Part shown: in pieces, positions 1,663 through 35,946 of the stretch | Layout: the number at the start of each line of letters is the position of its first letter | Position numbering within the stretch: the first letter of the stretch is position 1 | Virus record (IMG/VR): IMGVR_UViG_2870469529_000003 | Span: 1 to 42,569 of that record | Source: a virus | Lineage: Duplodnaviria > Heunggongvirae > Uroviricota > Caudoviricetes | Reading direction: 5' to 3' (one strand) | Length of the DNA stretch: 42,569 nucleotides | Notes under the pieces: generated by a model | What the model saw: only the letters and a program-made list of their open reading frames with translations | The model's database searches: none | What the model was told of the DNA's origin: nothing | Position numbers and translations under genes: made by a program

Positions 1663-2588
1663 AGATATCTCTTGTAGTTCCTGTCTTCAATGAAGAAGAA
1701 GCGATACCAATTTTTTATAAAACGGTACGTGAATTCGAAGAATTGAAGTCATATGAAGTGGAAATTGTTTTCATAAATGACGGCAGCAAAGACGCTACAG
1801 AGTCAATAATTAATGCTCTGGCTGTTTCAGATCCTCTAGTTGTTCCGCTGTCATTTACACGAAACTTTGGTAAAGAACCAGCATTGTTTGCAGGGTTAGA
1901 CCATGCAACAGGTGATGCCGTTATTCCTATTGATGTTGACCTGCAAGACCCGATTGAGGTCATTCCTCATCTGATTGAAAAGTGGCTAGCAGGTGCTGAC
2001 ATGGTGCTTGCTAAACGATCTGACCGCTCAACGGATGGCAGACTGAAGCGAAAAACGGCTGAGTGGTTCTATAAGCTCCACAATAAAATAAGCAATCCGC
2101 AGATAGAGGAAAATGTTGGAGATTTCAGGCTGATGTCTCGCGAGGTAGTGGAGAATATTAAGATCCTGCCAGAACGCAATCTTTTCATGAAAGGTATTCT
2201 TAGTTGGGTTGGTGGGGATACAGATGTTGTTGAGTATGTCCGCGCTGAGCGTGTAGCTGGCAGCACGAAATTCAATGGGTGGAAATTATGGAATCTGGCG
2301 ATAGAAGGAATAACCAGTTTCTCAACCTTCCCCTTGCGAATCTGGACGTATATCGGCTTAGCGGTAGCTGGATGCGCATTTTTGTATGGTTCATGGATGA
2401 TATTCAACACATTGGCATTTGGTAACGCAGTTCGCGGATATCCTTCACTACTTGTTTCAATCCTGTTTCTTGGTGGGGTACAGCTTATCGGGATAGGTGT
2501 TCTCGGGGAGTACATTGGAAGAATATACATTGAATCTAAAGCAAGACCAAAATATTTATTGAAAGGAAATAATAAAAATGAGAGCTAA
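1659..2588 (+). CDS. gtrB: GtrB-family bactoprenol glucosyltransferase (GT2), 309 aa
   Basis: N-terminal GT2 fold (VVPVFNEEE...INDGSKD...DVDLQDP) plus two C-terminal TM helices; start overlaps gtrA stop by 4 nt. Confidence 0.9.
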
Positions 2589-4389
2589 AACTATATATTT
2601 ATTAATATTTGCTTTTGTTATATCAACATATTTAAGTGGACGATTTCCATATAACATAGTAACTAACTCTGACTCAATATACGCCTATTCATTATTTAAA
2701 TCTATATTAACCGGAAATTCAAGTATTTTTGATTGGTACCCATCACCATCACCTTATGTATTCCCTGATCTATTGTTGTACTTTTTTTCTTTCTTGATAG
2801 GTTTTGGCGATGTGTTTTACGTACCTCTGGTTTATATTGTGTTGCAAATGTCATTGTTTTATATAAGCATAATATACATGCTGCGTAACTTATTCAATGA
2901 TAAAAATCACAGTGAATTATCATTATTGATTCTTTTGTCTTCAATTTTTATGGCATATTATTATGAGACTTACTCTATAATGCTAACGCCATTATTTCAC
3001 TTCGGTGTTTTAATTGCGTGCTTTTTTTCAATTGGATTATTATATGGAAGGGAAAACAAATCGCCAACAAAATACTTTGCACTATATGTTTTATCGTTTA
3101 TAAGCTCTTATTCTGATAACATGTATGTGATCTGGTTTTCTTTACCATCAACTGGAATAGCGATTACTTTATTAATCTTAAAAAATGATAAAAAGTATTT
3201 ACTGCCATCTTTTCTTTGCCTTGCAGCATCTCTATTAGGTATGCTCTCAACAAGGTATTTATTTATTAACTCAAGCATGTATGGCTATTCATTTAACGAG
3301 TCTGTCATCACAAATAACTTAATTGATGCATTCAATATTTTTTCATATTCATGGTATGGTTGCTTATTGCTAATATCTTTATTTATAATTGCTATTTACT
3401 CAGCTAAGTGCACAATAGAAAAAAACTATGGTGTGAAGTTTATAATTTCACTTTATTACATATATTCTTTTTTATCTACTTTAATCATCTTATCATTCCA
3501 AGATTCACTACCGCAGGCCGATAGGTACTACTCAATATCATTCTTTATGATGTTTCCTATGATATTTTATGTGTTTTTGTCTTTTGTAAAGATAAAACAT
3601 ATAACTTACGTATGCGCATTTTTCATTATTTTGGTTTTTTTATCTCTTCCTCATGTTAGCTTTATAGGTGCTGATCAGCAATGTTTGATACAAAACATTA
3701 AGTCAACCAATATCCGCAATGGAGTTTCTGGTTATTGGGATTCGAAAAGGCTAATGGCATACGATGATACATTATCAATATCACAAGTTGACCAAAATAT
3801 GAATGCATACAGATGGATAACATCTGAGACGCAATATCACAATGACGCTTATTTTGCGATATTAAATAACAATGACAGCCAGTCTATTAGGTATGATGCA
3901 TTAATAAATTTAAACGGCAATCCTTCACATGTAGGGCAATGTGGTGATTATAAAGTTTTGTTTTATAATAAACCAATAATAATAAACTCACTAAAAAATG
4001 TAGGTGATACATCAATTTTTAGTGGCGCACTCCTTAACTACGCTAATTACAAAAAGGATGGTAATATAATCTATCCTGCGGATGATTTTTCTGGAGGTAA
4101 CTTTAGCTTTGGTCCATTTGCAAAAGCTTACGAAGGAGATTATGAATATGTAGTAACAATTAAAAACAATAAAATGGAAGATGTAAATGGTTATATTGAT
4201 GTGGCAAATAAAAGTGGGAAAAACATTATCGACATAAATAACTTCAACTCAAACAGTTCTGTTATAAAGGTTAGCGGGAAATTCTCAATAAATTCCGATG
4301 ATAACAACACCAACCTAGAGATAAGGACGTTTCTTAGACATAGATATGATATCAGCATTGATAATATATACATAAAAAAAACAAAATAA
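2578..4389 (+). CDS. Serotype-specific O-antigen glucosyltransferase (GtrC-type), 603 aa: polytopic membrane domain plus ~200-aa hydrophilic N/D/S-rich C-terminal domain
   Basis: Third gene of the gtr operon, overlaps gtrB by 11 nt; many predicted TM helices; visibly AT-rich compared with neighbours. Confidence 0.6.
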
Positions 4390-4453: not shown

Positions 4454-6382
4454 TTAACTTGTAAAAACATTAACTAGCGTTATCTTTCCGCCTGGACGTT
4501 TATATATATAGCTATATCTATCATTATCCGGGGAAATTATTGTCTGACTGCTGTATTCTATGGCTAACATCGGTGTATTAATAGTGTACTCATTGTCTGC
4601 ATAAATGGCATATGAATCACTTTGTTCTGCCTTAAATACACAAGCAGCACCGATAGTACATCTGGTACTTGGTGATAATGTTCTGATAGCTGCTTTGTTT
4701 TCAGTGCCAGAATCAGAGTTTGTACCCCAGTTATTAAACTCAACTGCATCTATGGTCAATGAGCATTCATCACCCAATACTATTGGATTATTATTTACGC
4801 CTCTAATACTGCCAGCAGAAAATGACATAGATGTAGAATTAGTTGCATTAAGGAAGTTATAGGTACGTCGACTGGGTGTGCTGTATTCTCCCATGCCAAG
4901 TGCATCAAAAGAAGACATAACAAAACCATTAACTTTATCAGCCCTTATAGCTGTCATGTTAGTATTCAATGCGGTTGATGCGTGAACAAAATGAGCGTTA
5001 GATATTTGCACAGATTCTACTTTACGTACTGAGTTTCCGTACAGTGCTAAAATCGGGATAGATACTCCTGAAGTATTAGTTGTCTCACCAATATAAATAT
5101 TACTAAGCGCGGTATTTATATGATTTGTTGAAGTATCTTGTGGCTCTAAAGCTATAGCTCCAATATCATATCCTCCATTGCAAAATATATTGCTAGCTCG
5201 ATTGCCACCGGCTGATAACCTTAATGGGCAGCTTCCTCCGTACACTTCCACAGTGTCTAGAACAGAGTCGCTGTACACACGTATGCCACCTCCCGTTGCA
5301 CGGATTGAGATATCTGATGCATCGGTAGCTTCGCAATAAATATCTCGAAATCTTGCAAGTCCTTGACCGTCATAGATAAACCATGTATTGAATCTCTTGC
5401 CAGTTAACTTCTCGTAATACCACCCAGCACCGCGAGTATGCAGTATGGCGTGATTGCACCTCCACTCCCCGTCGAACTGGATGTTTTTGAACTTAATGCT
5501 GTCCTGGCCATCATTAGACTCACCGGAACTAAAGATAAAGTTCTGATTATCATTTAGTGGTTTTATTACGGTAGTGCCAGTATATGCCTGATTAGCGCCC
5601 TGACCTAAAAATGTCAGGCCTTGGGTATGTCCGGGTATAGTGCAGGGTGACATTCTAAGCTCTCCTTTTGGGAGAATAATGTGTCGCACGCCAGCATCTA
5701 TAGCTCTCAGTATTGCTGGGGTTTGGTCAGCAATATGAACTCCACCACCATAGTTTTCAATGTGATCTGAAACAGGTTCTTTTTTCCAGTTGGTATCTAC
5801 TGTCGGTGTAGTGGGAACCATTGAACCTGGTGTGATTTCCCCCTTGTATGAGTAGTATTCATTATTAAATTTGAATGCCTGTAGCGCAGAGTGCAATGGT
5901 GAATTGCTACCAAAATATCCAGATGGAATAAATGGATGCAAATCATATTGCTGTAATTCAAATAGTTTTATTGCATTATCAAGCGTAGAATCTTCATATC
6001 CAACAAGTGAGGCCCCTTCAGGACCAGATAACTCTTTCCTTAGCTGATCAGGATCATACTTCAGCACATTAGGAAAATAGAACTGCTGTGCACCATACGC
6101 ATCATAAACAGCCATAGAATGGCCTTGCACGGTAACGAATTTGGCAATCTGTCCGTTATATACCGGATAACCAGCAGCGTTAATGATGATTGGTTGAGAA
6201 ACAGGAACGTGAGAGCCGTCTTCGTTCTCCACATAAACCTGAATCTGGTTTTCTGGATTTACCGGATCAGTGTCAATTTTACCGATATAAATTTTACCAT
6301 TGGCTACGGCTTTAAAAGAACGCGCCATAGTGAAGAGTTGCGATGGCATTGATACGATCACATTGGCTGTAATGTCTGTCAT
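4454..6382 (-). CDS. Tailspike protein (P22 gp9-like N-terminal head-binding domain, divergent receptor-binding domain)
   Basis: N-terminus [11 protein letters not shown]...[14 protein letters not shown]...LKYDPDQ matches the P22 tailspike head-binding domain; the remainder is a different beta-helix-type domain. Confidence 0.85.
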
Positions 6383-29637: not shown

Positions 29638-31089
29638 TCAGAATCCTCCTTTCTTCTTGGACTGCGGTTCCTCGCGTTCACGGCGGCGCATTTCAGCAGA
29701 CTGTTGGTCTGTGTCATAAATAGCGCCATTTGCCTGAATGCAATACACCGTGCCGGTATTGCCATGACGATTGAGACGAAGGATTAGTTCGGTTTCACCA
29801 GGTGGAACATTGTCATCAAAAGCACCTTCACGATGGATCCCCACCCAATAATCGCAATCCTGTTCAATCTGCCCTGTATCTCGTGAGTCACTTGGTAATG
29901 GGCGTTTATTGGTTCGGCTTTCCAGTGCGCGGTTAAGCTGCGTCAGAAGCACAACAACGCAATCAAGCTCTTTGGCAAGGTTCTTCAGTCCTTTGGTGAT
30001 CATGCCGTAAGCAAGGTCGTTGCGATCGGCCTTTTCAGCGGTCATTAGTGTCAGGTAATCGACCAGAATCATGCCAACACATCCTTTTTCTCGCTTGATT
30101 CGACGGCTTTCGCTGACGATTTGAGCCAGAGATAATCCCGGCGTGTCGTCGATGTAAAGCAGGTCGATTTCACTCAAGCGATTGGCTGTTTCGATCGCCC
30201 TGTTGAAGTCACCATCGTAATCACCCTGATAGCCGTCATCAGCGTCATTTGTCGCCGGAAGGTAAAAAATATTCGGGTTAACACCTGACTTCTGTCCTAC
30301 CAGTTTTTCCAGTATCTGATCACCTGGCATTTCAAGGCTGAACATCAGAGCAGGCTTTTTCTCATGCACTGCGCAGTTGATTGCCATCTGGCTGTATAGC
30401 GTCGTTTTCCCCATCTTAGGGCGAGCGCCAATGACAAACAAAGAGCCTTTCACCAGACCTTTCGGTGACAGCATCCTGTCCAGCGATGGGATCCCTGTGC
30501 TCATTCCTCGTTGTTCACCTGACGGGTCAAAACGCTTCTCAAGGTCGCTAACCCAGTCTTCCATGACATCACCAAATGAGCGAAGTCCGCGACGCGATCC
30601 GGTTTTTGCATGGTCTGTCAGTTGCGTGAAAATCGCCTGAATAGCTTCGTACTTCTGCGTTGCAGTCATTCCGTTGCGGGAATAGAGCAATTCCGTCGCT
30701 TCAGTCATGCGGTTGATGGCGTAGCGTTCCATTGCGGTTTCACGAACCTGCATTGCATAGGCAACGATGTTTGCGGCGCTTGGCGTGTTCTTTGCGATCT
30801 CAGCGATATAAGCAAAACCGCCAACAGACGCCGTTAATGATTTGCGATCCAGTTCATCGAAAAGCGTCAGCCCATCTACTGGCTTTTGCTCCCGGTGCAT
30901 TCTGGTTATTTCATCGAAAATGATTTTGTGTGGTCGGCTGTAAAATGAATCAGGCTTCAGCATCGCCAGAACTTTCCGGACGCGCTCACTGCTGTCATCA
31001 TCCAGAAGCAATCCACCAATAACCGCCTGCTCTGCCTCGATGCTATGGGGCGGCGCATAAAAATTATCGGTCATCGTGTTCACCCTCAC
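29638..31089 (-). CDS. Replicative DNA helicase, DnaB family (P22 gene 12-like), 483 aa
   Basis: N-terminal DnaB domain (PHSIEAEQAVIGGLLLD) and Walker A (GARPKMGKT). Confidence 0.9.
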   Translation of the reverse strand: MRVNTMTDNFYAPPHSIEAEQAVIGGLLLDDDSSERVRKVLAMLKPDSFYSRPHKIIFDEITRMHREQKPVDGLTLFDELDRKSLTASVGGFAYIAEIAKNTPSAANIVAYAMQVRETAMERYAINRMTEATELLYSRNGMTATQKYEAIQAIFTQLTDHAKTGSRRGLRSFGDVMEDWVSDLEKRFDPSGEQRGMSTGIPSLDRMLSPKGLVKGSLFVIGARPKMGKTTLYSQMAINCAVHEKKPALMFSLEMPGDQILEKLVGQKSGVNPNIFYLPATNDADDGYQGDYDGDFNRAIETANRLSEIDLLYIDDTPGLSLAQIVSESRRIKREKGCVGMILVDYLTLMTAEKADRNDLAYGMITKGLKNLAKELDCVVVLLTQLNRALESRTNKRPLPSDSRDTGQIEQDCDYWVGIHREGAFDDNVPPGETELILRLNRHGNTGTVYCIQANGAIYDTDQQSAEMRRREREEPQSKKKGGF

Positions 31090-31954
31090 GAACTTTCAGG
31101 TAGGTATTGTCGTTAAGCAGGAAATCAAATCCCTTTTTGTGCCAGACGGTTCCGCGTTGATGGTTTGGGCGTTCTTCGAACATCCATCGGCAATTTTCGC
31201 CTACGTAGCTCAAATAATTTCTCCAGTCCTGCATCGTGAACCCATGCCCGTCAAGCTGGCGGGTTATCACTCCGGCTTTGCGCCAGAACGTTCGGATCTG
31301 GTTTTTACGCTTGTCATTCAGTGCGCGGATTCTTGGCGCTTCAGGAAGGATTTCGTGGTAAGCATCGACAACATCCTGACAGCTAACGGAAGGTTTTTTC
31401 TTGTCAGACTTTTTGTCTGCTGTGGCACTCTCTAATACGTCAGTATTAGAGATATTATTTATATTATTGTTTATGGACAACCGTTGGACAACCGTTGGAC
31501 AATCTCCGCTGAGAGCCGCGCCATTACTGGTGTTTGCGTTGGACAACCGTTGGACAACCGTTGGACAATTTTTTGCCTGAAAATCGTCATATTTAACGAT
31601 TGTAAACAGGCTAAATTTCTTCCCCATCGAGCAAATATTAAGCATCCCTTTCGACTCAAAAGTCCGTAATAAGCTCCGAACTTTGTTGTCGGGGATGAAT
31701 GTTTCTCTGACCAGCGACGGGCGTCCAGTTATCATCTGACCGCGATCAACAGTTATCGGACCGATATCCGTATTGACGACAGTAGATTCGTGATTAGCCT
31801 TGAGGATTAAGTGAAGCCAAAGATGTACTGCCTGAGAGTCCTTATAGAGACTGCTGTCCATAAACTGGCGGTGTATAGAGACATACCCCATACTGGATGC
31901 CTCCTGATGTTGTACAGGGTTATGCCTGTAATCAGCTAACTTAACGACGCCCAT
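31064..31954 (-). CDS. Replication initiator (lambda O / P22 gene 18 analogue) containing the origin iterons
   Basis: AGGAG RBS before ATG at 31954; the iterons encode a repeated CPTVVQRLS peptide in the linker. Confidence 0.75.
   Translation of the reverse strand: MGVVKLADYRHNPVQHQEASSMGYVSIHRQFMDSSLYKDSQAVHLWLHLILKANHESTVVNTDIGPITVDRGQMITGRPSLVRETFIPDNKVRSLLRTFESKGMLNICSMGKKFSLFTIVKYDDFQAKNCPTVVQRLSNANTSNGAALSGDCPTVVQRLSINNNINNISNTDVLESATADKKSDKKKPSVSCQDVVDAYHEILPEAPRIRALNDKRKNQIRTFWRKAGVITRQLDGHGFTMQDWRNYLSYVGENCRWMFEERPNHQRGTVWHKKGFDFLLNDNTYLKVREGEHDDR
31478..31570. repeat. Origin of replication: two clusters of 11-bp iteron CCGTTGGACAA followed by an AT-rich tract
   Basis: GGACAACCGTTGGACAACCGTTGGACAA ... 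TTGGACAACCGTTGGACAACCGTTGGACAATTTTTTGCC inside the initiator gene. Confidence 0.8.
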
Positions 31955-32136
31955 GTTTCACTCCTGCTTTGGCTAGTCTGTAAACACCAACAAGGCGCTC
32001 TGCGAACGCCCTGTTATTTGCTGCGGCTACCACTAATCCCTCAGGTGAATCAGGGTGTCGAATCTCTTCTTTTTCCTGGTATTTCTTACGACGTTTTGTC
32101 ATAATTACTCCTGTGGATTGATCCAGTCTTTCTACA

Positions 32137-32418
32137 TCAGGCCTCGAAGAATTCGCCGTTCTTCGGGGCTTTTTCTTTTGTCAGGTAATTGGCAAGCCGC
32201 TTAGTCAGCTCAGCCATTTCATCGTCTTCGATTCCGTATTCCAGAACAGCCAGCATCATGCTTACCTGCGAGAAGAAACCATTCTTCCATCGGCTTACCT
32301 GATATTCAGGAACCCCCATTGCTCGAGCGAATGTCTTCTGCCCCATCAGTGCCAGTTTGTTCAGCAAGGCTGACTCGATGCGAGCCGCTTTCTTGCTTTT
32401 AGTTGCAATAGTACCCAT
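32137..32418 (-). CDS. cII: CII-type transcriptional activator, 93 aa
   Basis: ...ARIESALLNKLALMGQKTFARAMGVPEYQVSRWKNGF...MLAVLEYGIEDDEM... resembles lambda CII. Confidence 0.85.
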   Translation of the reverse strand: MGTIATKSKKAARIESALLNKLALMGQKTFARAMGVPEYQVSRWKNGFFSQVSMMLAVLEYGIEDDEMAELTKRLANYLTKEKAPKNGEFFEA

Positions 32419-32494
32419 AGATAATTTCCTTAATGATTAGATAGAGTTGGCTTCGCAAAGAAACGCAAAACCATAGAGATTTGTTTCTGGTAAT

Positions 32495-32509
32495 GCCCTT
32501 TTTCAGGGC
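32495..32509 (-). promoter_or_regulatory. nutR boxB (minus strand GCCCTGAAAAAGGGC)
   Basis: Exact lambda nutR boxB hairpin sequence between cro and cII. Confidence 0.75.
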
Positions 32510-32534
32510 TGGGATGTGTAAGAGCGGGAATGTC

Positions 32535-32750
32535 TTAAGCGGCTTTGTGTTCCGGCGGGAACACGTCATCAAGACTGACTTTTGCGCCTAACTTGTTTAG
32601 GCACTCAACAAGAGCACGGCATGTTTTAAGGTCTGGGAAGCGACGACCAGATTCCCAATGTCCGATAGCTCCCTGTGTGCATCCAACTGCCTTAGCAAGT
32701 GTTGTTTGAGAGATATTCAGTGACTCTCGATATTTTCGTAGGTTGCTCAT
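32535..32750 (-). CDS. cro: Cro-type repressor (HTH), 71 aa from MSNLRKYRESL...
   Basis: GGAGGG RBS; HTH ISQTTLAKAVGCTQGAIGHWESGRRFP; the longer track ORF 32535-32921 is an upstream extension. Start placed by frame arithmetic. Confidence 0.75.
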   Translation of the reverse strand: MSNLRKYRESLNISQTTLAKAVGCTQGAIGHWESGRRFPDLKTCRALVECLNKLGAKVSLDDVFPPEHKAA

Positions 32751-32777
32751 ATGCCCTCCATAGTAACCATGAAACAA

Positions 32778-32806
32778 TAATACGATATGTACTTTTAGAA
32801 TGCAAA
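32778..32806 (-). promoter_or_regulatory. pR-like promoter (-35 TTGCAT, 17-nt spacer, -10 TATTAT) within the OR region
   Basis: Hexamers read on the minus strand; AGTAC-containing operator-like half-sites overlap. Confidence 0.55.
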
Positions 32807-32867
32807 CAAAAAATACATCTTGTGCATGGATGGTTTTAGTACAGAGCGTAATAATAAGGGTATGAAA

Positions 32868-33521
32868 ATGAAATGGTATGAACTGGCTAGATCCAGAATG
32901 AAAGAGCTCGGCATAACTCAAGAGAAGTTAGCTGAAGAGCTTGGTATGACGCAGGGTGGAATTGGTCACTGGTTGCGCGGATCTCGTCATCCATCTCTTG
33001 ACGAGATTGGTGTGGTGTTTAAATACCTTGGTATTGATAACGTCTCATTCAACCACGACGGTACATTTTCACCTGTTGGCGAATACTCATCTGCCCCCGT
33101 TAAAAAACAATATGAGTACCCTGTTTTTTCTCATGTTCAGGCCGGGATGTTCTCGCCTGAGCTTAGAACCTTTACCAAAGGTGATGCGGAGAGATGGGTC
33201 AGCACAACCAAAAAAGCCAGTGATTGTGCGTTCTGGCTTGAAGTTGAAGGTAATTCCATGACCGCGCCAACAGGATCCAAGCCAAGCTTTCCTGACGGGA
33301 TGTTAATTCTCGTTGACCCTGAGCAGGCTGTTGAGCCAGGTGATTTCTGCATAGCCAGACTTGGTGGTGACGAGTTTACCTTCAAGAAACTGATCAGGGA
33401 TAGCGGTCAGGTGTTCCTACAGCCACTAAACCCGCAATATCCAATGATTCCATGCAATGATAGCTGTTCCGTAGTAGGGAAAGTTATCGCCAGCCAGTGG
33501 CCTGAAGAGACATTTAGTTAA
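32868..33521 (+). CDS. cI: CI-type prophage repressor: lambda-like C-terminal domain, distinct N-terminal HTH (start uncertain; alternatives 32826 and 32862)
   Basis: C-terminal ~110 aa ([17 protein letters not shown]...[10 protein letters not shown]...[13 protein letters not shown]) appears near-identical to lambda CI; N-terminal HTH resembles the cro HTH in this window. Confidence 0.8.
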
Positions 33522-33553
33522 CAGCCTCACAACTCTAAAACACACAACAATAA

Positions 33554-33585
33554 CCCGACCTTAGCGTCGGGTTTTCTTTTTCCAA
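33554..33585 (+). terminator. Rho-independent terminator downstream of cI
   Basis: CCCGACCTTAGCGTCGGG stem followed by TTTTCTTTTT. Confidence 0.7.
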
Positions 33586-33646
33586 AACATAAACCCATTA
33601 AATACAAAGCGTTATAAAAAACCAATCATATTTAGAACATTTTGTA

Positions 33647-33675
33647 TTGACTCGATAAAGTACAAATCGTACTAT
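33647..33675 (+). promoter_or_regulatory. pL-like promoter (-35 TTGACT, 17-nt spacer, -10 TACTAT) with overlapping operator palindrome AGTACAAATCGTACT
   Basis: Perfect 5-5-5 inverted repeat at ~33659-33673 overlapping the spacer and -10. Confidence 0.6.
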
Positions 33676-33713
33676 TTAGCCATCAGCAGGACGCACTAAC
33701 CACCATGAAGGTG

Positions 33714-33745
33714 ATGCTCTTAAAAATTAAGCCCTGAAGAAGGGC
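33714..33745 (+). promoter_or_regulatory. nutL (boxA-like TGCTCTTAA plus boxB GCCCTGAAGAAGGGC)
   Basis: boxB is identical to lambda nutL boxB; sits between pL and N. Confidence 0.75.
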
Positions 33746-33943
33746 GGCTTTCAAAGCAGAAGGCTTTGGGATTGGATGAATGAGCAGGCTGATGCTCGAC
33801 CAATGTATAAACAGCGCTCATGGCAAGCAGTAACCAATCTGCGCCTCAAGACAGCGTCACTGGTAGTGCGGGCGCTCTAACCAGTAAGCCGGGGTTCAGC
33901 GCCGGCCATCCAATCACCAAAGCTAACTGACAGGAGAATCCAG

Positions 33944-34276
33944 ATGGATGCACAAACACGCCGCCGCGAACGTCGCGCAGAGAAACAGGCTCAATGGAAA
34001 GCAGCAAATCCCCTGTTGGTTGGGGTAAGCGCAAAACCAGTTAACCGCCCTATTCTCTCGCTGAATCGCAAACCGAAATCACGAGTAGAAAGCGCACTGA
34101 ATCCGATAGACCTTACGGTGCTGGCTGAATACCACGAACAGATTGAAAGCAACCTGCAACGTATTGAGCGCAAGAATCAGCGCACATGGTACAGCAAGCC
34201 ACGCAGTGAAATGGGTGTGACCTGTTCAGGCCGCCAGAAGCAACGCGGAAAATCAATTCCAGCCTATTACGATTGA
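33944..34276 (+). CDS. N: Antiterminator N, lambda-type, 110 aa
   Basis: MDAQTRRRERRAEKQAQWKAANPLLVGVSAKPVNRPILSLNRKPKSRVESALNPIDLTVLAEYH... appears near-identical to lambda N including the Arg-rich motif. Confidence 0.9.
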   Translation: MDAQTRRRERRAEKQAQWKAANPLLVGVSAKPVNRPILSLNRKPKSRVESALNPIDLTVLAEYHEQIESNLQRIERKNQRTWYSKPRSEMGVTCSGRQKQRGKSIPAYYD

Positions 34277-34545
34277 GGTGGTCATGCTCAAGAAAATCAA
34301 ACGCCGACTTTACAAAGAAGGTAGATATTCATGCCAATTGCCAAAATGCGACACAACAAAATGGAGTGTCGATGATTGGTGTAACTGGATAGATAGATAC
34401 GGAACTTGGTGGGATAAATAACAGGTAACTTAAGCGTATTTACTTTCGCGGCAAACCACATATTTGAGGTGAGATATGGAAGAAGAATTTGAAGAGTTCG
34501 AAGAGCATCCTCAGGATGTGATGGAACAATACCAGGACTATCCGT

Positions 34546-34746
34546 ATGACTACGACTATTGATACAAATCAATGGTGTGGACAATTCAAGCGATGCAATG
34601 GATGCAAGCTGCAATCGGAATGCATGGTTAAGCCTGAAGAAATGTTTCCTGTAATGGAAGATGGGAAATATGTCGATAAATGGGCAATACGAACGACGGC
34701 AATGATTGCCAGAGAACTTGGTAAACAGAATAACAAGGCTGCCTGA
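34546..34746 (+). CDS. ral: Ral-type restriction-alleviation protein, 66 aa
   Basis: MTTTIDTNQWCGQFKRCNGCKLQSECMVKPEEMFPVMEDGKYVDKWAIRTTAMIARELGKQNNKAA matches my recollection of lambda Ral. Confidence 0.75.
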   Translation: MTTTIDTNQWCGQFKRCNGCKLQSECMVKPEEMFPVMEDGKYVDKWAIRTTAMIARELGKQNNKAA

Positions 34747-34779
34747 TGGTGGCCTTTATTTTTGGCGTAAACAACAGAG

Positions 34780-35079
34780 GTGAATATGAATTATACACCC
34801 GGCCCATGGAAATGGTGGACAAGTAACAGCTTTCTGCGATTAAGCAGTCAAGCAACAGGTAAAGATGGTGGTGTCATCGACTCTTATGTCATGAAGGATG
34901 GTCACTCATCACTAATCGTTAGCAAAGAAGATATGAATCTGATAGCGGCAGCACCAGACCTTTTAAATGCCCTGCAAGCGATGCTAAACAAGGCATACAA
35001 GCAAAACTGGAATGACCATTATCCTGATGAAGTATCGAAAGCACAGTCAGCAATCAGCAAAGCTCTTGGGGAAGAATGA
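34780..35079 (+). CDS. Hypothetical early-left protein, 99 aa
   Basis: ORF in pL operon context; no recognisable motif. Confidence 0.5.
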   Translation: MNMNYTPGPWKWWTSNSFLRLSSQATGKDGGVIDSYVMKDGHSSLIVSKEDMNLIAAAPDLLNALQAMLNKAYKQNWNDHYPDEVSKAQSAISKALGEE

Positions 35080-35692: not shown

Positions 35693-35946
35693 GTTTTACA
35701 GATAACTGGTCAGACGGAGAATTCATTCGTCAGATGAAAGAATTAATCGGTAACGAAGGAGATATTCATGTCACTTGCAACCACAGTGAAGGAGAGCAAG
35801 TTACAGAGACGCATGTACACGCAGAAAGCTCTCTGGTATCGCCATAATGGTGACCGCGAAGGAATGCGGGTATGCCTTAATTTGTCCCGAGTCGAAGTAT
35901 TAAATCAGCGTTATTTCCTTGGGCCGTGTCCATTCTGAGGTGAATT

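Follow-up and report, generated by a model that had tools for sequence, protein, structure and literature searches.

The window, by which we mean the whole 42,569-nt stretch of phage DNA analysed here, carries an immunity region that we read, with a probability of about 0.9, as a bistable switch of lambda architecture, belonging to the VT2-Sakai (Sp5)/Stx2 phage II/Nil2 immunity type and carried by a P22-like temperate coliphage. This immunity type is already known and is ordinary, not new. The region has the composition of a lambdoid switch, with a tripartite OR on pR/pRM, an OL on the pL promoter that drives N together with nut sites, and CII with its pRE boxes. The two divergent regulatory genes, including the two parts of cI, are as follows.

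32868-33521, + strand: cI, encoding a 217-aa HTH_3 plus Peptidase_S24 repressor
32868-33110, + strand: 5' part of cI, of VT2-Sakai type, encoding the DNA-binding head (HTH_3) and linker, aa 1-81
33111-33521, + strand: 3' part of cI, of lambda type, encoding the cleavage-site region and the S24 oligomerisation/autocleavage domain
32535-32750, - strand: cro, encoding a 71-aa all-helical HTH_3 (XRE-type) Cro with the recognition helix TQGAIGHW

The cI reading frame stops at 33521 and has two in-frame ATGs, at 32862 and 32868; a start at the former would add Met-Lys to the N terminus of CI. Both domains of the protein score above the curated Pfam cut-offs, HTH_3 at aa 11-58 (E = 8e-11) and Peptidase_S24 at aa 87-209 (E = 9e-29). 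Residues 82-217 are identical to lambda CI at 133 of 136 positions (98%), in agreement with the near-identity noticed in the preliminary description, and the 3' part matches the lambda repressor entries 3bdn and 8gmu in the PDB. Alignment to lambda CI shows that VQAGMF (Ala92-Gly93), GNSMT (Ser130), and TFKKL (Lys173) are retained, the counterparts of which in lambda CI we take to be A111-G112, S149, and K192; by its domain order, Ala-Gly site, and Ser/Lys dyad, CI is a LexA/CI-type S24 repressor. Nucleotide homology to lambda cI sets in abruptly at 33111 and extends to 33515 at 93.8%, and the 5' part (32868-33110) has no nucleotide homology to lambda. This sharp break bears out the domain-swap architecture proposed earlier: compared with lambda, cI is a recombinational mosaic whose breakpoint falls at codon 82, about ten residues ahead of the Ala-Gly cleavage site, and the mosaic is old, widespread, and not peculiar to this phage. 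The head (the first 81 aa) has 21% identity to lambda CI; nevertheless, the earlier statement that it is unrelated to lambda was too strong, because both heads are HTH_3 domains and a PDB search with this head alone still reaches the lambda repressor N-terminal domain (1lli, E = 7e-4).

Cro is likewise assigned to HTH_3 (Pfam, E = 1.4e-12), and its closest solved structure is 28tn_A (E = 2.4e-16). The motif TQG.IGHW..G.R.P, which had been described as common to CI and Cro, is indeed present in both, in Cro within the stretch CTQGAIGHWESGRRFP. Cro and the CI head can be aligned over 62 aa with 35% identity (E = 6e-13), which supports the reading of Cro as a paralogue-like match of that head.

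The cro (- strand) and cI (+ strand) genes diverge from a gap of 111 to 117 bp that carries three dyads, and altogether six dyads with the consensus ARTAC-N5-GTAYT lie over pR/pRM and pL. The sites and promoters are listed below.

32777-32806, - strand: pR, towards cro, TTTGCA-18-TATTAT or TTGCAT-17-TATTAT (promoter scan)
32778-32794: putative OR1, 17-mer TAATACGATATGTACTT, core 32779-32793, over the pR spacer and -10
32811-32827: putative OR2, 17-mer AAATACATCTTGTGCAT, the weakest match, directly upstream of the pR -35
32837-32853: putative OR3, 17-mer TAGTACAGAGCGTAATA, overlapping the inferred pRM -10
32849-32864, + strand: inferred pRM -10, TAATAA (32849-32854), and transcript start
33600-33616: putative OL3, AAATACAAAGCGTTATA, core 33601-33615
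33633-33649: putative OL2, TAGAACATTTTGTATTG, core 33634-33648, adjoining the pL -35
33658-33674: putative OL1, AAGTACAAATCGTACTA, a perfect 15-bp dyad over the pL spacer and -10
33647-33675, + strand: pL, towards N, TTGACT-17-TACTAT (promoter scan)

The perfect OL dyad reported over pL is found as described, with its core AGTACAAATCGTACT at 33659-33673 inside the promoter, and so are the imperfect AGTAC half-sites over pR/pRM, which form the dyads at 32779-32793, 32812-32826, and 32838-32852 in the cro-cI gap. Measured against AGTAC-N5-GTACT, OL1 has no mismatch, OR1 and OR3 have one each, OL2 has two, and OR2 has three. When the bare pattern was allowed up to three mismatches, it showed no enrichment across the window (110 found, 99 expected), and for this reason we scored the window with a weight matrix derived from the six VT2-Sakai operators, which were published independently of it; the signal lies in near-perfect, clustered sites. 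Among about 42,500 scored positions, OL1, OR1, OL2, OR3, and OL3 take ranks 1 to 5 in that order and OR2 takes rank 7, and the five best scores are 15.4 to 21.3 bits, compared with a mean best score of 13.2 across 200 shuffles. With at most one mismatch to AGTAC-N5-GTACT, there are four sites in the 42.5-kb window, three of them within the two operator intergenic stretches. Another perfect dyad, at 4655-4669, came into question as a possible distal operator but was judged a probable chance match, because the tailspike coding sequence contains it and its 17-bp matrix score is lower.

Comparison of the window with the Stx1-converting phage AP005153 shows that the half-sites are kept, whereas the centre bases and the spacers between operators vary; OR3 is invariant in the OR alignment, and OL3 is conserved relative to AP005153. 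The reading of the AGTAC-type dyads as predicted operators is supported by this conservation in related phages while the spacers drift, and by their placement on pL and pR. Centre to centre, the sites are 33/26 bp apart at OR and 25/33 bp apart at OL. The position of pR coincides with the "putative major rightward promoter" annotated in AP005153, and the counterpart of OR2 is a putative operator in that record. The placement of pRM is based on the sequence and on lambda geometry, and it coincides with that of a "putative maintenance promoter" in AP005153. The consensus promoter scan returned no match for pRM, as expected for a weak, activator-dependent promoter. OR2 is located at about -43 from the inferred pRM start, which would coincide with or adjoin the first cI ATG (32862) and, as in lambda, would give a leaderless cI mRNA.

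The following elements flank the switch.

33552-33573, + strand: intrinsic terminator after cI (terminator scan)
33731-33745, + strand: nutL boxB, GCCCTGAAGAAGGGC (pattern match, in a block matching annotated lambda NutL)
33944-34276, + strand: N antiterminator gene, lambda type (Pfam N36, E = 1.6e-26)
32495-32526, - strand: nutR, with boxA CGCTCTTA at 32519-32526 and boxB GCCCTGAAAAAGGGC at 32495-32509 (pattern matches)
32137-32418, - strand: cII activator gene (Pfam Phage_CII, E = 7.6e-30)

The stretch around the terminator (33544-33579) is 89% identical to lambda 35799-35834, which is located directly downstream of rexB in lambda; rexA and rexB are absent from the immunity region of the window. 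Homology to lambda resumes at 33681, the pL transcript start (95.6% in the block 33681-33770), and the lambda N region is matched with 99% nucleotide identity over 33915-34200. As in lambda, nutR is placed between cro and cII, and the pRE CII boxes TTGC-N6-TTGC (TTGCTTTTAGTTGC, 32393-32406 on the + strand) lie within the 5' end of cII. An Rfam scan of 31500-35000 at gathering thresholds gave no family match.

The assignment to a known type is carried by the comparison with the VT2-Sakai group. Relative to the AP005153 proteins, identity is 97% for CI and 99% for Cro, with 78 of 81 residues shared in the CI head (96%) and 70 of 71 in Cro, and no difference falls within the recognition helix. 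There are 122 matching phage records, including Nil2, Stx2 II, 2851, 1717, YYZ-2008, and PA phages. For VT2-Sakai, six predicted operators, three at OR and three at OL, have been published (PMC10742460); AP005153 carries annotated putative operators, three each at OR and OL, that are identical to them and stand at positions homologous to those of the window sites. Each of the six window sites agrees with its VT2-Sakai counterpart at 15 (OR1, OR2, and OL2) or 16 (OR3, OL1, and OL3) of the 17 bases, and the changes are confined to centre or flank positions or to swaps that ARTAC-N5-GTAYT permits. The mosaic repressor is also known: Smith et al. 2012 (PMC3430580) described that lambda CI and "CI2c" share the C terminus and differ in the N terminus, Fattah et al. 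2000 are credited in PMC10742460 with the combination of a lambda C terminus and a different N terminus, and PMC8951638 is further prior literature on this CI mosaic and immunity type. The group is labelled "CI2c/Cro4" in Smith 2012 and its CI "Clade I" in Fagerlund 2022, and the PA-type prophage PST1-1 (e.g., PA4) was equated with the Sakai Stx2a prophage by Yin 2015. Of 5,426 complete E. coli genomes, 775 (about 14%) contain the segment from cro through OR to the cI head, and an immunity region more than 99% identical to the one described here is found in the P22-like phage isolates Dewey, Louie, 720R6, and 683R2; PMC12243541 describes Huey, Dewey, and Louie as viruses that infect E. coli K-12.

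The window shares with the VT2-Sakai/AP005153 group the six operators in the same order, divergent cI and cro with pR, pRM, and pL, and the lambda-type C-terminal domain, at a nucleotide divergence of about 6 to 7%. Unlike in that group, the region is carried here by a P22-like (Lederbergvirus-type) podophage that lacks stx. The OR spacing is 33/26 here and 32/26 in AP005153, and the OL spacing is 25/33 in both. The flanks differ: lambda-type N and nutL are found here and an HK97-type N in AP005153, cII is different, and OL directly follows the cI terminator, whereas AP005153 has about 1.3 kb of extra ORFs between cI and OL.

The preliminary description had taken the domain swap for a previously undescribed immunity type with new operator specificity. 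The 21% identity of the head to lambda CI and operators unlike those of lambda are in line with this, and in the accessible literature we found no direct biochemical work with this CI or Cro and their own operators (Fattah 2000 and Sato 2003 are known to us at second hand). However, the CI, Cro, and operators found here hardly differ from those of VT2-Sakai, Stx2 II, AP005153, and Nil2, the lambda mosaic is in print, and the spread of the segment through 775 complete E. coli genomes also speaks against novelty, making an undescribed type very improbable; in identity and in predicted operators, the head is that of a type already described. What stands of the proposed specificity is its difference from lambda, since no lambda-type operator is found in OR or OL at up to three mismatches (five weak matches elsewhere in the window are consistent with chance), but the same operators had already been described for VT2-Sakai. 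We give equally little credence to the view that the switch is a decayed remnant of a cryptic prophage with non-functional cI and cro. The VT2-Sakai copy of this cI does have a premature stop (Smith et al. 2012, PMC3430580), but in the window the reading frames of cI, cro, cII, and N are intact and encode complete domains, the promoters, putative operators, nut sites, and terminator are all present, a full P22-like structural and replication gene set accompanies them, and the region is more than 99% identical to those of Dewey and Louie, which are reported to infect E. coli K-12 (PMC12243541).

It is unlikely, though less so, that the specificity is not independent and that the phage is cross-immune with lambda, through repression by lambda CI or through mixed repressor oligomers. 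Cross-immunity between VT2-Sakai and lambda is attributed by PMC10742460 to Fattah et al. 2000, and the same paper contains the only EMSA on VT2-Sakai operators that we found, in which lambda CI shifted these operators with apparent Kd values of 3.7 to 6.4 uM, similar to the 3.07 uM obtained there for lambda OR3. The 98% identity of the C-terminal domains would, in addition, make mixed dimers or tetramers plausible. Nevertheless, lambda OL1 and OR1 were bound at 0.21 to 0.35 uM, 10 to 25 times tighter than any VT2-Sakai site (PMC10742460), and the micromolar values were obtained on single isolated sites; we have doubts, which that paper does not voice, that they reflect specific recognition. 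OR and OL hold no lambda-type operator within three mismatches, the CI heads are 21% identical, and the claim of Fattah et al. comes to us through a citing paper.

For the VT2-Sakai-type switch that we favour, a working scheme can be drawn from the sequence and from lambda, from which we infer binding, activation, cooperativity, and cleavage. CI dimers would bind the ARTAC-N5-GTAYT dyads through the HTH head; at OR1, CI would mask the pR spacer and -10 and silence cro, and at OL1 it would do the same to pL and silence N. At OR2, which as in lambda precedes the inferred pRM start by about 43 bp, CI could activate cI, and OR3 over the pRM -10 would provide negative autoregulation. Cro, with its CI-type recognition helix, is expected to read all six of these sites too, but to the opposite effect. 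Dimerisation and dimer-dimer cooperativity would depend on the lambda-type C-terminal part, and its 98% identity to that of lambda points to RecA-stimulated self-cleavage at Ala92-Gly93 by Ser130/Lys173 and hence to lambda-like SOS induction. CII at pRE, N at nutL and nutR, and the terminator after cI would complete the circuit. Lambda-style pairwise cooperativity between OR1 and OR2 with the same C-terminal domain is an assumption, because the spacings of 33/26 and 25/33 differ from the 24/23 (OR) and 24/20 (OL) of lambda, centre to centre. The OR1-OR2 and OL2-OL3 distances of 33 bp, a pattern of the whole VT2-Sakai and phage L family, exceed those of lambda (24 and 20 bp) by about one helical turn. 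We tentatively suggest, while thinking it rather doubtful, that this spacing alters the cooperative pairings and the pRM logic relative to lambda and that mixed CI oligomers form in polylysogens; if so, mixed oligomers with lambda-type repressors could lead to partial cross-immunity or negative dominance, and the cross-immunity of VT2-Sakai and lambda credited to Fattah et al. might have this basis.

Compared with lambda, the overall circuit architecture is the same and 133 of 136 residues are shared from the CI cleavage-site region to the C terminus; homology or identity also extends to the terminator after the cI operon, the pL transcript start, nutL, N, and the nutR boxB. OR2 and OR3 are located at about -43 and -17 relative to the cI start, against -42 and -19 in lambda. 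In contrast, CI is without the N-terminal arm of lambda CI and has a shorter linker (217 versus 237 aa), the operators are ARTAC-N5-GTAYT and those of lambda are TATCACCGC-type, and Cro has 36% identity to lambda Cro, in a gapped multiple alignment with few aligned positions. The window has no nucleotide homology to lambda cro, and in its CI head, operators, and Cro the region falls outside imm-lambda.

CI heads about 50% identical to this one are found in Salmonella phages SPN9CC and ST64T. In ST64T (L type, c2-cro), the CI head (48% identical) has the recognition helix TQGAIGHW and Cro (70% identical) has TQGAIGHY, and ARTAC-N5-GTAYT dyads also occur, three at OR and, at OL, two exact and one weaker, with similar spacings; unlike the CI described here, its C-terminal domain, 47% identical, is not of lambda type. 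The present pair resembles those of 434 and P22 in that its Cro, all-helical and of HTH_3 type, is a homologue of the repressor head, and both proteins would read the same sites through a common recognition helix; structures of P22 C2 and 434 repressor give marginal sequence matches (E = 0.006 to 0.4). Their operators differ, however, and the C-terminal domain of the present CI is lambda's.

The immunity region described here represents one of the commonest lambdoid types in E. coli and carries little weight as a discovery, because the type is common and both mosaic and operators are already in the literature and in GenBank annotation. Judged by its sequence, a phage or prophage carrying this region is expected to show homoimmunity towards the Sakai-type Stx2a prophage (Sp5) as well as Stx2c and Stx1 phages of the same type, and this expected homoimmunity is relevant to superinfection and repressor cross-talk in Shiga toxin-producing strains. 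The region also provides a clean natural case of modular repressor evolution, in which head, Cro, and operators move as one set, and the induction/oligomerisation domain is common to lambda while the specificity set differs.

The window is the genome or prophage of a P22-like (Lederbergvirus-type) temperate coliphage, matching IME10, APC_JM3.2, Dewey, and Louie over its structural half and, in patches, 683R2, mEpX2, HK633, and Sf6 over its early half. Compared with the standard lambda map, the early region runs the other way round: cI and N are on the plus strand, and cro, cII, an O-like initiator gene, and a DnaB-type helicase gene are on the minus strand. The immunity region is a complete lambda-architecture switch with the following elements:

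32137-32418, minus: cII, flanking cro/cI
32393-32406: CII boxes TTGC-N6-TTGC, inside the cII start
Between cro and cII: nutR (boxA and boxB)
32535-32750, minus: cro, 71 aa, Pfam HTH_3
32779-93, 32812-26, 32838-52: dyads OR1, OR2, and OR3 between cro and cI
Spacer and -10 covered by dyad 32779-93: pR, TTTGCA-18-TATTAT
32868-33521, plus: cI, 217 aa, HTH_3 and Peptidase_S24
33552-33573: terminator directly after cI
33601-15 and 33634-48: further OL dyads (OL3, OL2), upstream of the perfect one
33647-33675: pL, TTGACT-17-TACTAT, rated a good promoter, reading into nutL and N
33659-33673: perfect dyad OL1, AGTACAAATCGTACT, over the spacer and -10 of pL
Downstream of pL: nutL boxB
33944-34276, plus: N, lambda-type, flanking cro/cI

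The repressor is sharply divided when compared with lambda CI (63% overall, 149/237 residues). Its 136 C-terminal residues are identical to lambda at 133 positions, as the preliminary description had anticipated, and carry Ala92-Gly93, Ser130, and Lys173. DNA homology to lambda starts abruptly at 33111 (codon 82, QY|EYPVF) and continues at 93.8% to the end of cI; since this breakpoint lies about ten codons ahead of the Ala-Gly cleavage site, the cleavage-site region and the catalytic/oligomerization domain are all lambda-type. The N-terminal part, taken as about 90 residues, had been called unrelated to lambda; identity over the first 81 residues is only 21%, but the word goes too far, because this head is an HTH_3 domain like that of lambda and recovers the lambda repressor N-terminal domain from the PDB (E = 7e-4). 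In pairwise alignment, its stretch QEKLAEEL pairs with lambda QESVADKM and retains the acidic positions. The positive-control residues of lambda CI are E34 and D38, and the stretch may represent an activation patch at these positions.

Identity of CI proteins to the window CI, head and linker (aa 1-81), then tail (aa 82-217)
AP005153 (Stx1 phage): 96%, 97%
Lambda: 21%, 98%
SPN9CC (Salmonella phage): 51%, 79%
ST64T (Salmonella phage; phage L-type c2/cro): 48%, 47%

Relatives of the head with about 50% identity occur in Salmonella, Klebsiella, Erwinia, Vibrio, and Pseudomonas phages. In ST64T, divergence is even across head and tail and the tail is not lambda-type, whereas SPN9CC joins a related head to a lambda-like tail, so only the comparison with lambda shows the discontinuity (21% versus 98%). 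Such a step is what recombination in the linker would leave, and either gene may be the recombinant.

Cro shares with CI the motif TQG.IGHW..G.R.P that had been noticed earlier, and the two proteins align at 35% identity (E = 6e-13), so that Cro is a paralogue of the repressor head in the manner of 434 and P22, unlike lambda Cro. The closest solved structure is PDB 28tn chain A, a "lambda repressor-like protein" of 82 aa, in a full-length alignment (E = 2.4e-16).

The operators proposed at both ends of cI were recovered: the perfect dyad lies over pL, and three imperfect AGTAC dyads occupy the cro-cI gap, the first over pR. Allowing at most one mismatch, the dyad occurs only four times in 42.5 kb, three times within the OR and OL gaps. 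As an independent test, a weight matrix was built from six published VT2-Sakai (Stx2 phage) operators and scanned over the window; the six sites took ranks 1 to 5 and 7, and the top five scored 15.4 to 21.3 bits, whereas over 200 shuffles the best score averaged 13.2. Alignment with AP005153, about 7% diverged, reveals that half-sites are kept while centre bases and inter-operator spacers drift. A second perfect AGTAC-N5-GTACT dyad, AGTACATCTGGTACT, is found at 4655-4669 in the C-terminal part of a tailspike-like gene (4454-6382, minus, 642 aa); about 0.04 perfect dyads would be expected by chance per 42.5 kb. It was set aside as a candidate distal operator and is probably a chance match, given its lower 17-bp matrix score (rank 6) and its position in coding sequence. 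Convergent with the tailspike-like gene is an ORF at 2578-4389 (plus) with a very hydrophobic 603-aa product, which looks like a lysogenic-conversion moron of the O-antigen modification type.

In the proposed circuit, pR and pL would be occluded by OR1 and OL1. Counted back from the first ATG of cI, the centres of OR2 and OR3 are at about 43 and 17 bp, compared with 42 and 19 bp from the pRM start (the cI AUG) in lambda, which argues for a weak, CI-activated pRM (-10 TAATAA at 32849-54) that would make a leaderless cI mRNA. There are two in-frame cI ATGs six bases apart (32862-32870), both kept in AP005153. The first, at 32862, is where the leaderless transcript would begin; the second, annotated as the start in ON470605 (720R6), is preceded at 7 nt by a Shine-Dalgarno-like AAGGG. 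The first could be used on pRM transcripts and the second on pRE transcripts.

Relative to lambda, the specificity DNA forms two blocks, cro-OR-cI head (32535-33110) and the OL operators with pL (about 33580-33680). Both are set in lambda-like sequence, namely the tail of cI, the terminator after it, the nutL-bearing pL transcript, and N. The terminator sequence (33544-33579) is 89% identical to lambda DNA immediately beyond rexB, and the window simply lacks both rexA and rexB. Where the window has this terminator (33522-33600), small unrelated ORFs take up about 1.3 kb in AP005153, and the cI-to-OL interval thus acts as a cargo-insertion site.

Elsewhere in the early region, a short block at 32093-32127 is 91 to 100% identical to lambda and AP005153 and coincides with the conserved oop promoter/5' region of PMC3349717, and a strong terminator-like hairpin (32139-32171, plus) lies over the 3' end of cII. 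The pair point to an antisense RNA of the oop kind; an Rfam scan gave no match. Within the O-like replication initiator gene (31064-31954, minus), two direct-repeat clusters of GGACAACCGTT units at 31471-31570, each "ggacaaccgttggacaaccgttggacaa", resemble the origin iterons of lambda O.

The proposal that this is a new immunity type is excluded. The region matches 122 phage records, with identity above 99% in vB_EcoP-720R6, 683R2, Dewey, and Louie, all P22-like; about 93 to 94% identity extends to Nil2, the Stx1-converting phage and Stx2 phage II of strain Morioka V526, 2851, 1717, YYZ-2008, and PA phages, of which the PA type (PST1-1, e.g., PA4) has been equated with the Sakai Stx2a prophage (Yin et al. 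2015). CI and Cro are 97% and 99% identical to those of AP005153, in which OR and OL each already have three putative operators annotated at homologous positions. These are exactly the six VT2-Sakai operators of Table S1 in Sedhom and Solomon 2023 (PMC10742460), which share 15 to 16 of 17 bases with the window sites. The repressor has been named CI2c and the Cro protein Cro4 by Smith et al. 2012 (PMC3430580), who already noted that CI2c has its C-terminus in common with lambda CI but differs from it at the N-terminus. Lambda-like Stx-phage CI proteins form "Clade I" of Fagerlund et al. 2022 (PMC8951638) with 61% overall identity to lambda CI, a value near the 63% found here that suggests the same class. 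The region thus coincides in identity and operators with a known type whose operators are, in the sources consulted, sequence predictions; the only binding data found for them are those of lambda CI. The cro-OR-head segment occurs in 775 of 5,426 complete E. coli genomes. At 100% identity, 32535-33110 is present in the chromosome of E. coli strain 2015C-4136CT1 (NZ_CP027550.1), and 4 of the 801 matching places in E. coli genomes are on plasmids.

Functional cross-immunity with lambda is improbable. PMC10742460 credits Fattah et al. 2000 with having found VT2-Sakai and lambda cross-immune, and with a comparison in which homology to lambda CI was high at the C-terminus and low at the N-terminus; the oligomerization domain is common to both repressors. 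Against a simply shared specificity, the operator sequences differ, no lambda-type sites with 3 or fewer mismatches were found in OR or OL, and lambda CI binds the VT2-Sakai operators 10- to 25-fold more weakly (apparent Kd 3.7 to 6.4 uM versus 0.21 to 0.35 uM for lambda OL1/OR1; PMC10742460). The reading as a decayed cryptic copy is contradicted: genes and sites are intact, and the region is nearly identical to that of phages (Dewey, Louie) described as infecting E. coli K-12 (PMC12243541). The earlier observation is confirmed, and the mechanism would be lambda-like, with a specificity that differs from lambda and is already catalogued.

The ARTAC-N5-GTAYT dyads recur at OR and OL of ST64T (L006 1105-1179, 1917-1986), which also has the recognition helices TQGAIGHW in CI and TQGAIGHY in Cro and a 70% identical Cro, and it is possible that Sakai-type and phage L/ST64T-type operator specificities overlap across genera. 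In the window, operator centres are 33/26 bp apart at OR (OR1-OR2/OR2-OR3) and 25/33 bp apart at OL (OL1-OL2/OL2-OL3); AP005153 has 32/26 and 25/33 bp, and ST64T has a similar long/short pattern. At each operator, one spacing exceeds that of lambda (24/23 at OR, 24/20 at OL) by roughly a helical turn, and this coexists with a cooperativity domain that is 98% lambda. The dimer pairs that cooperate may therefore differ from those of lambda, a detail of a known system.
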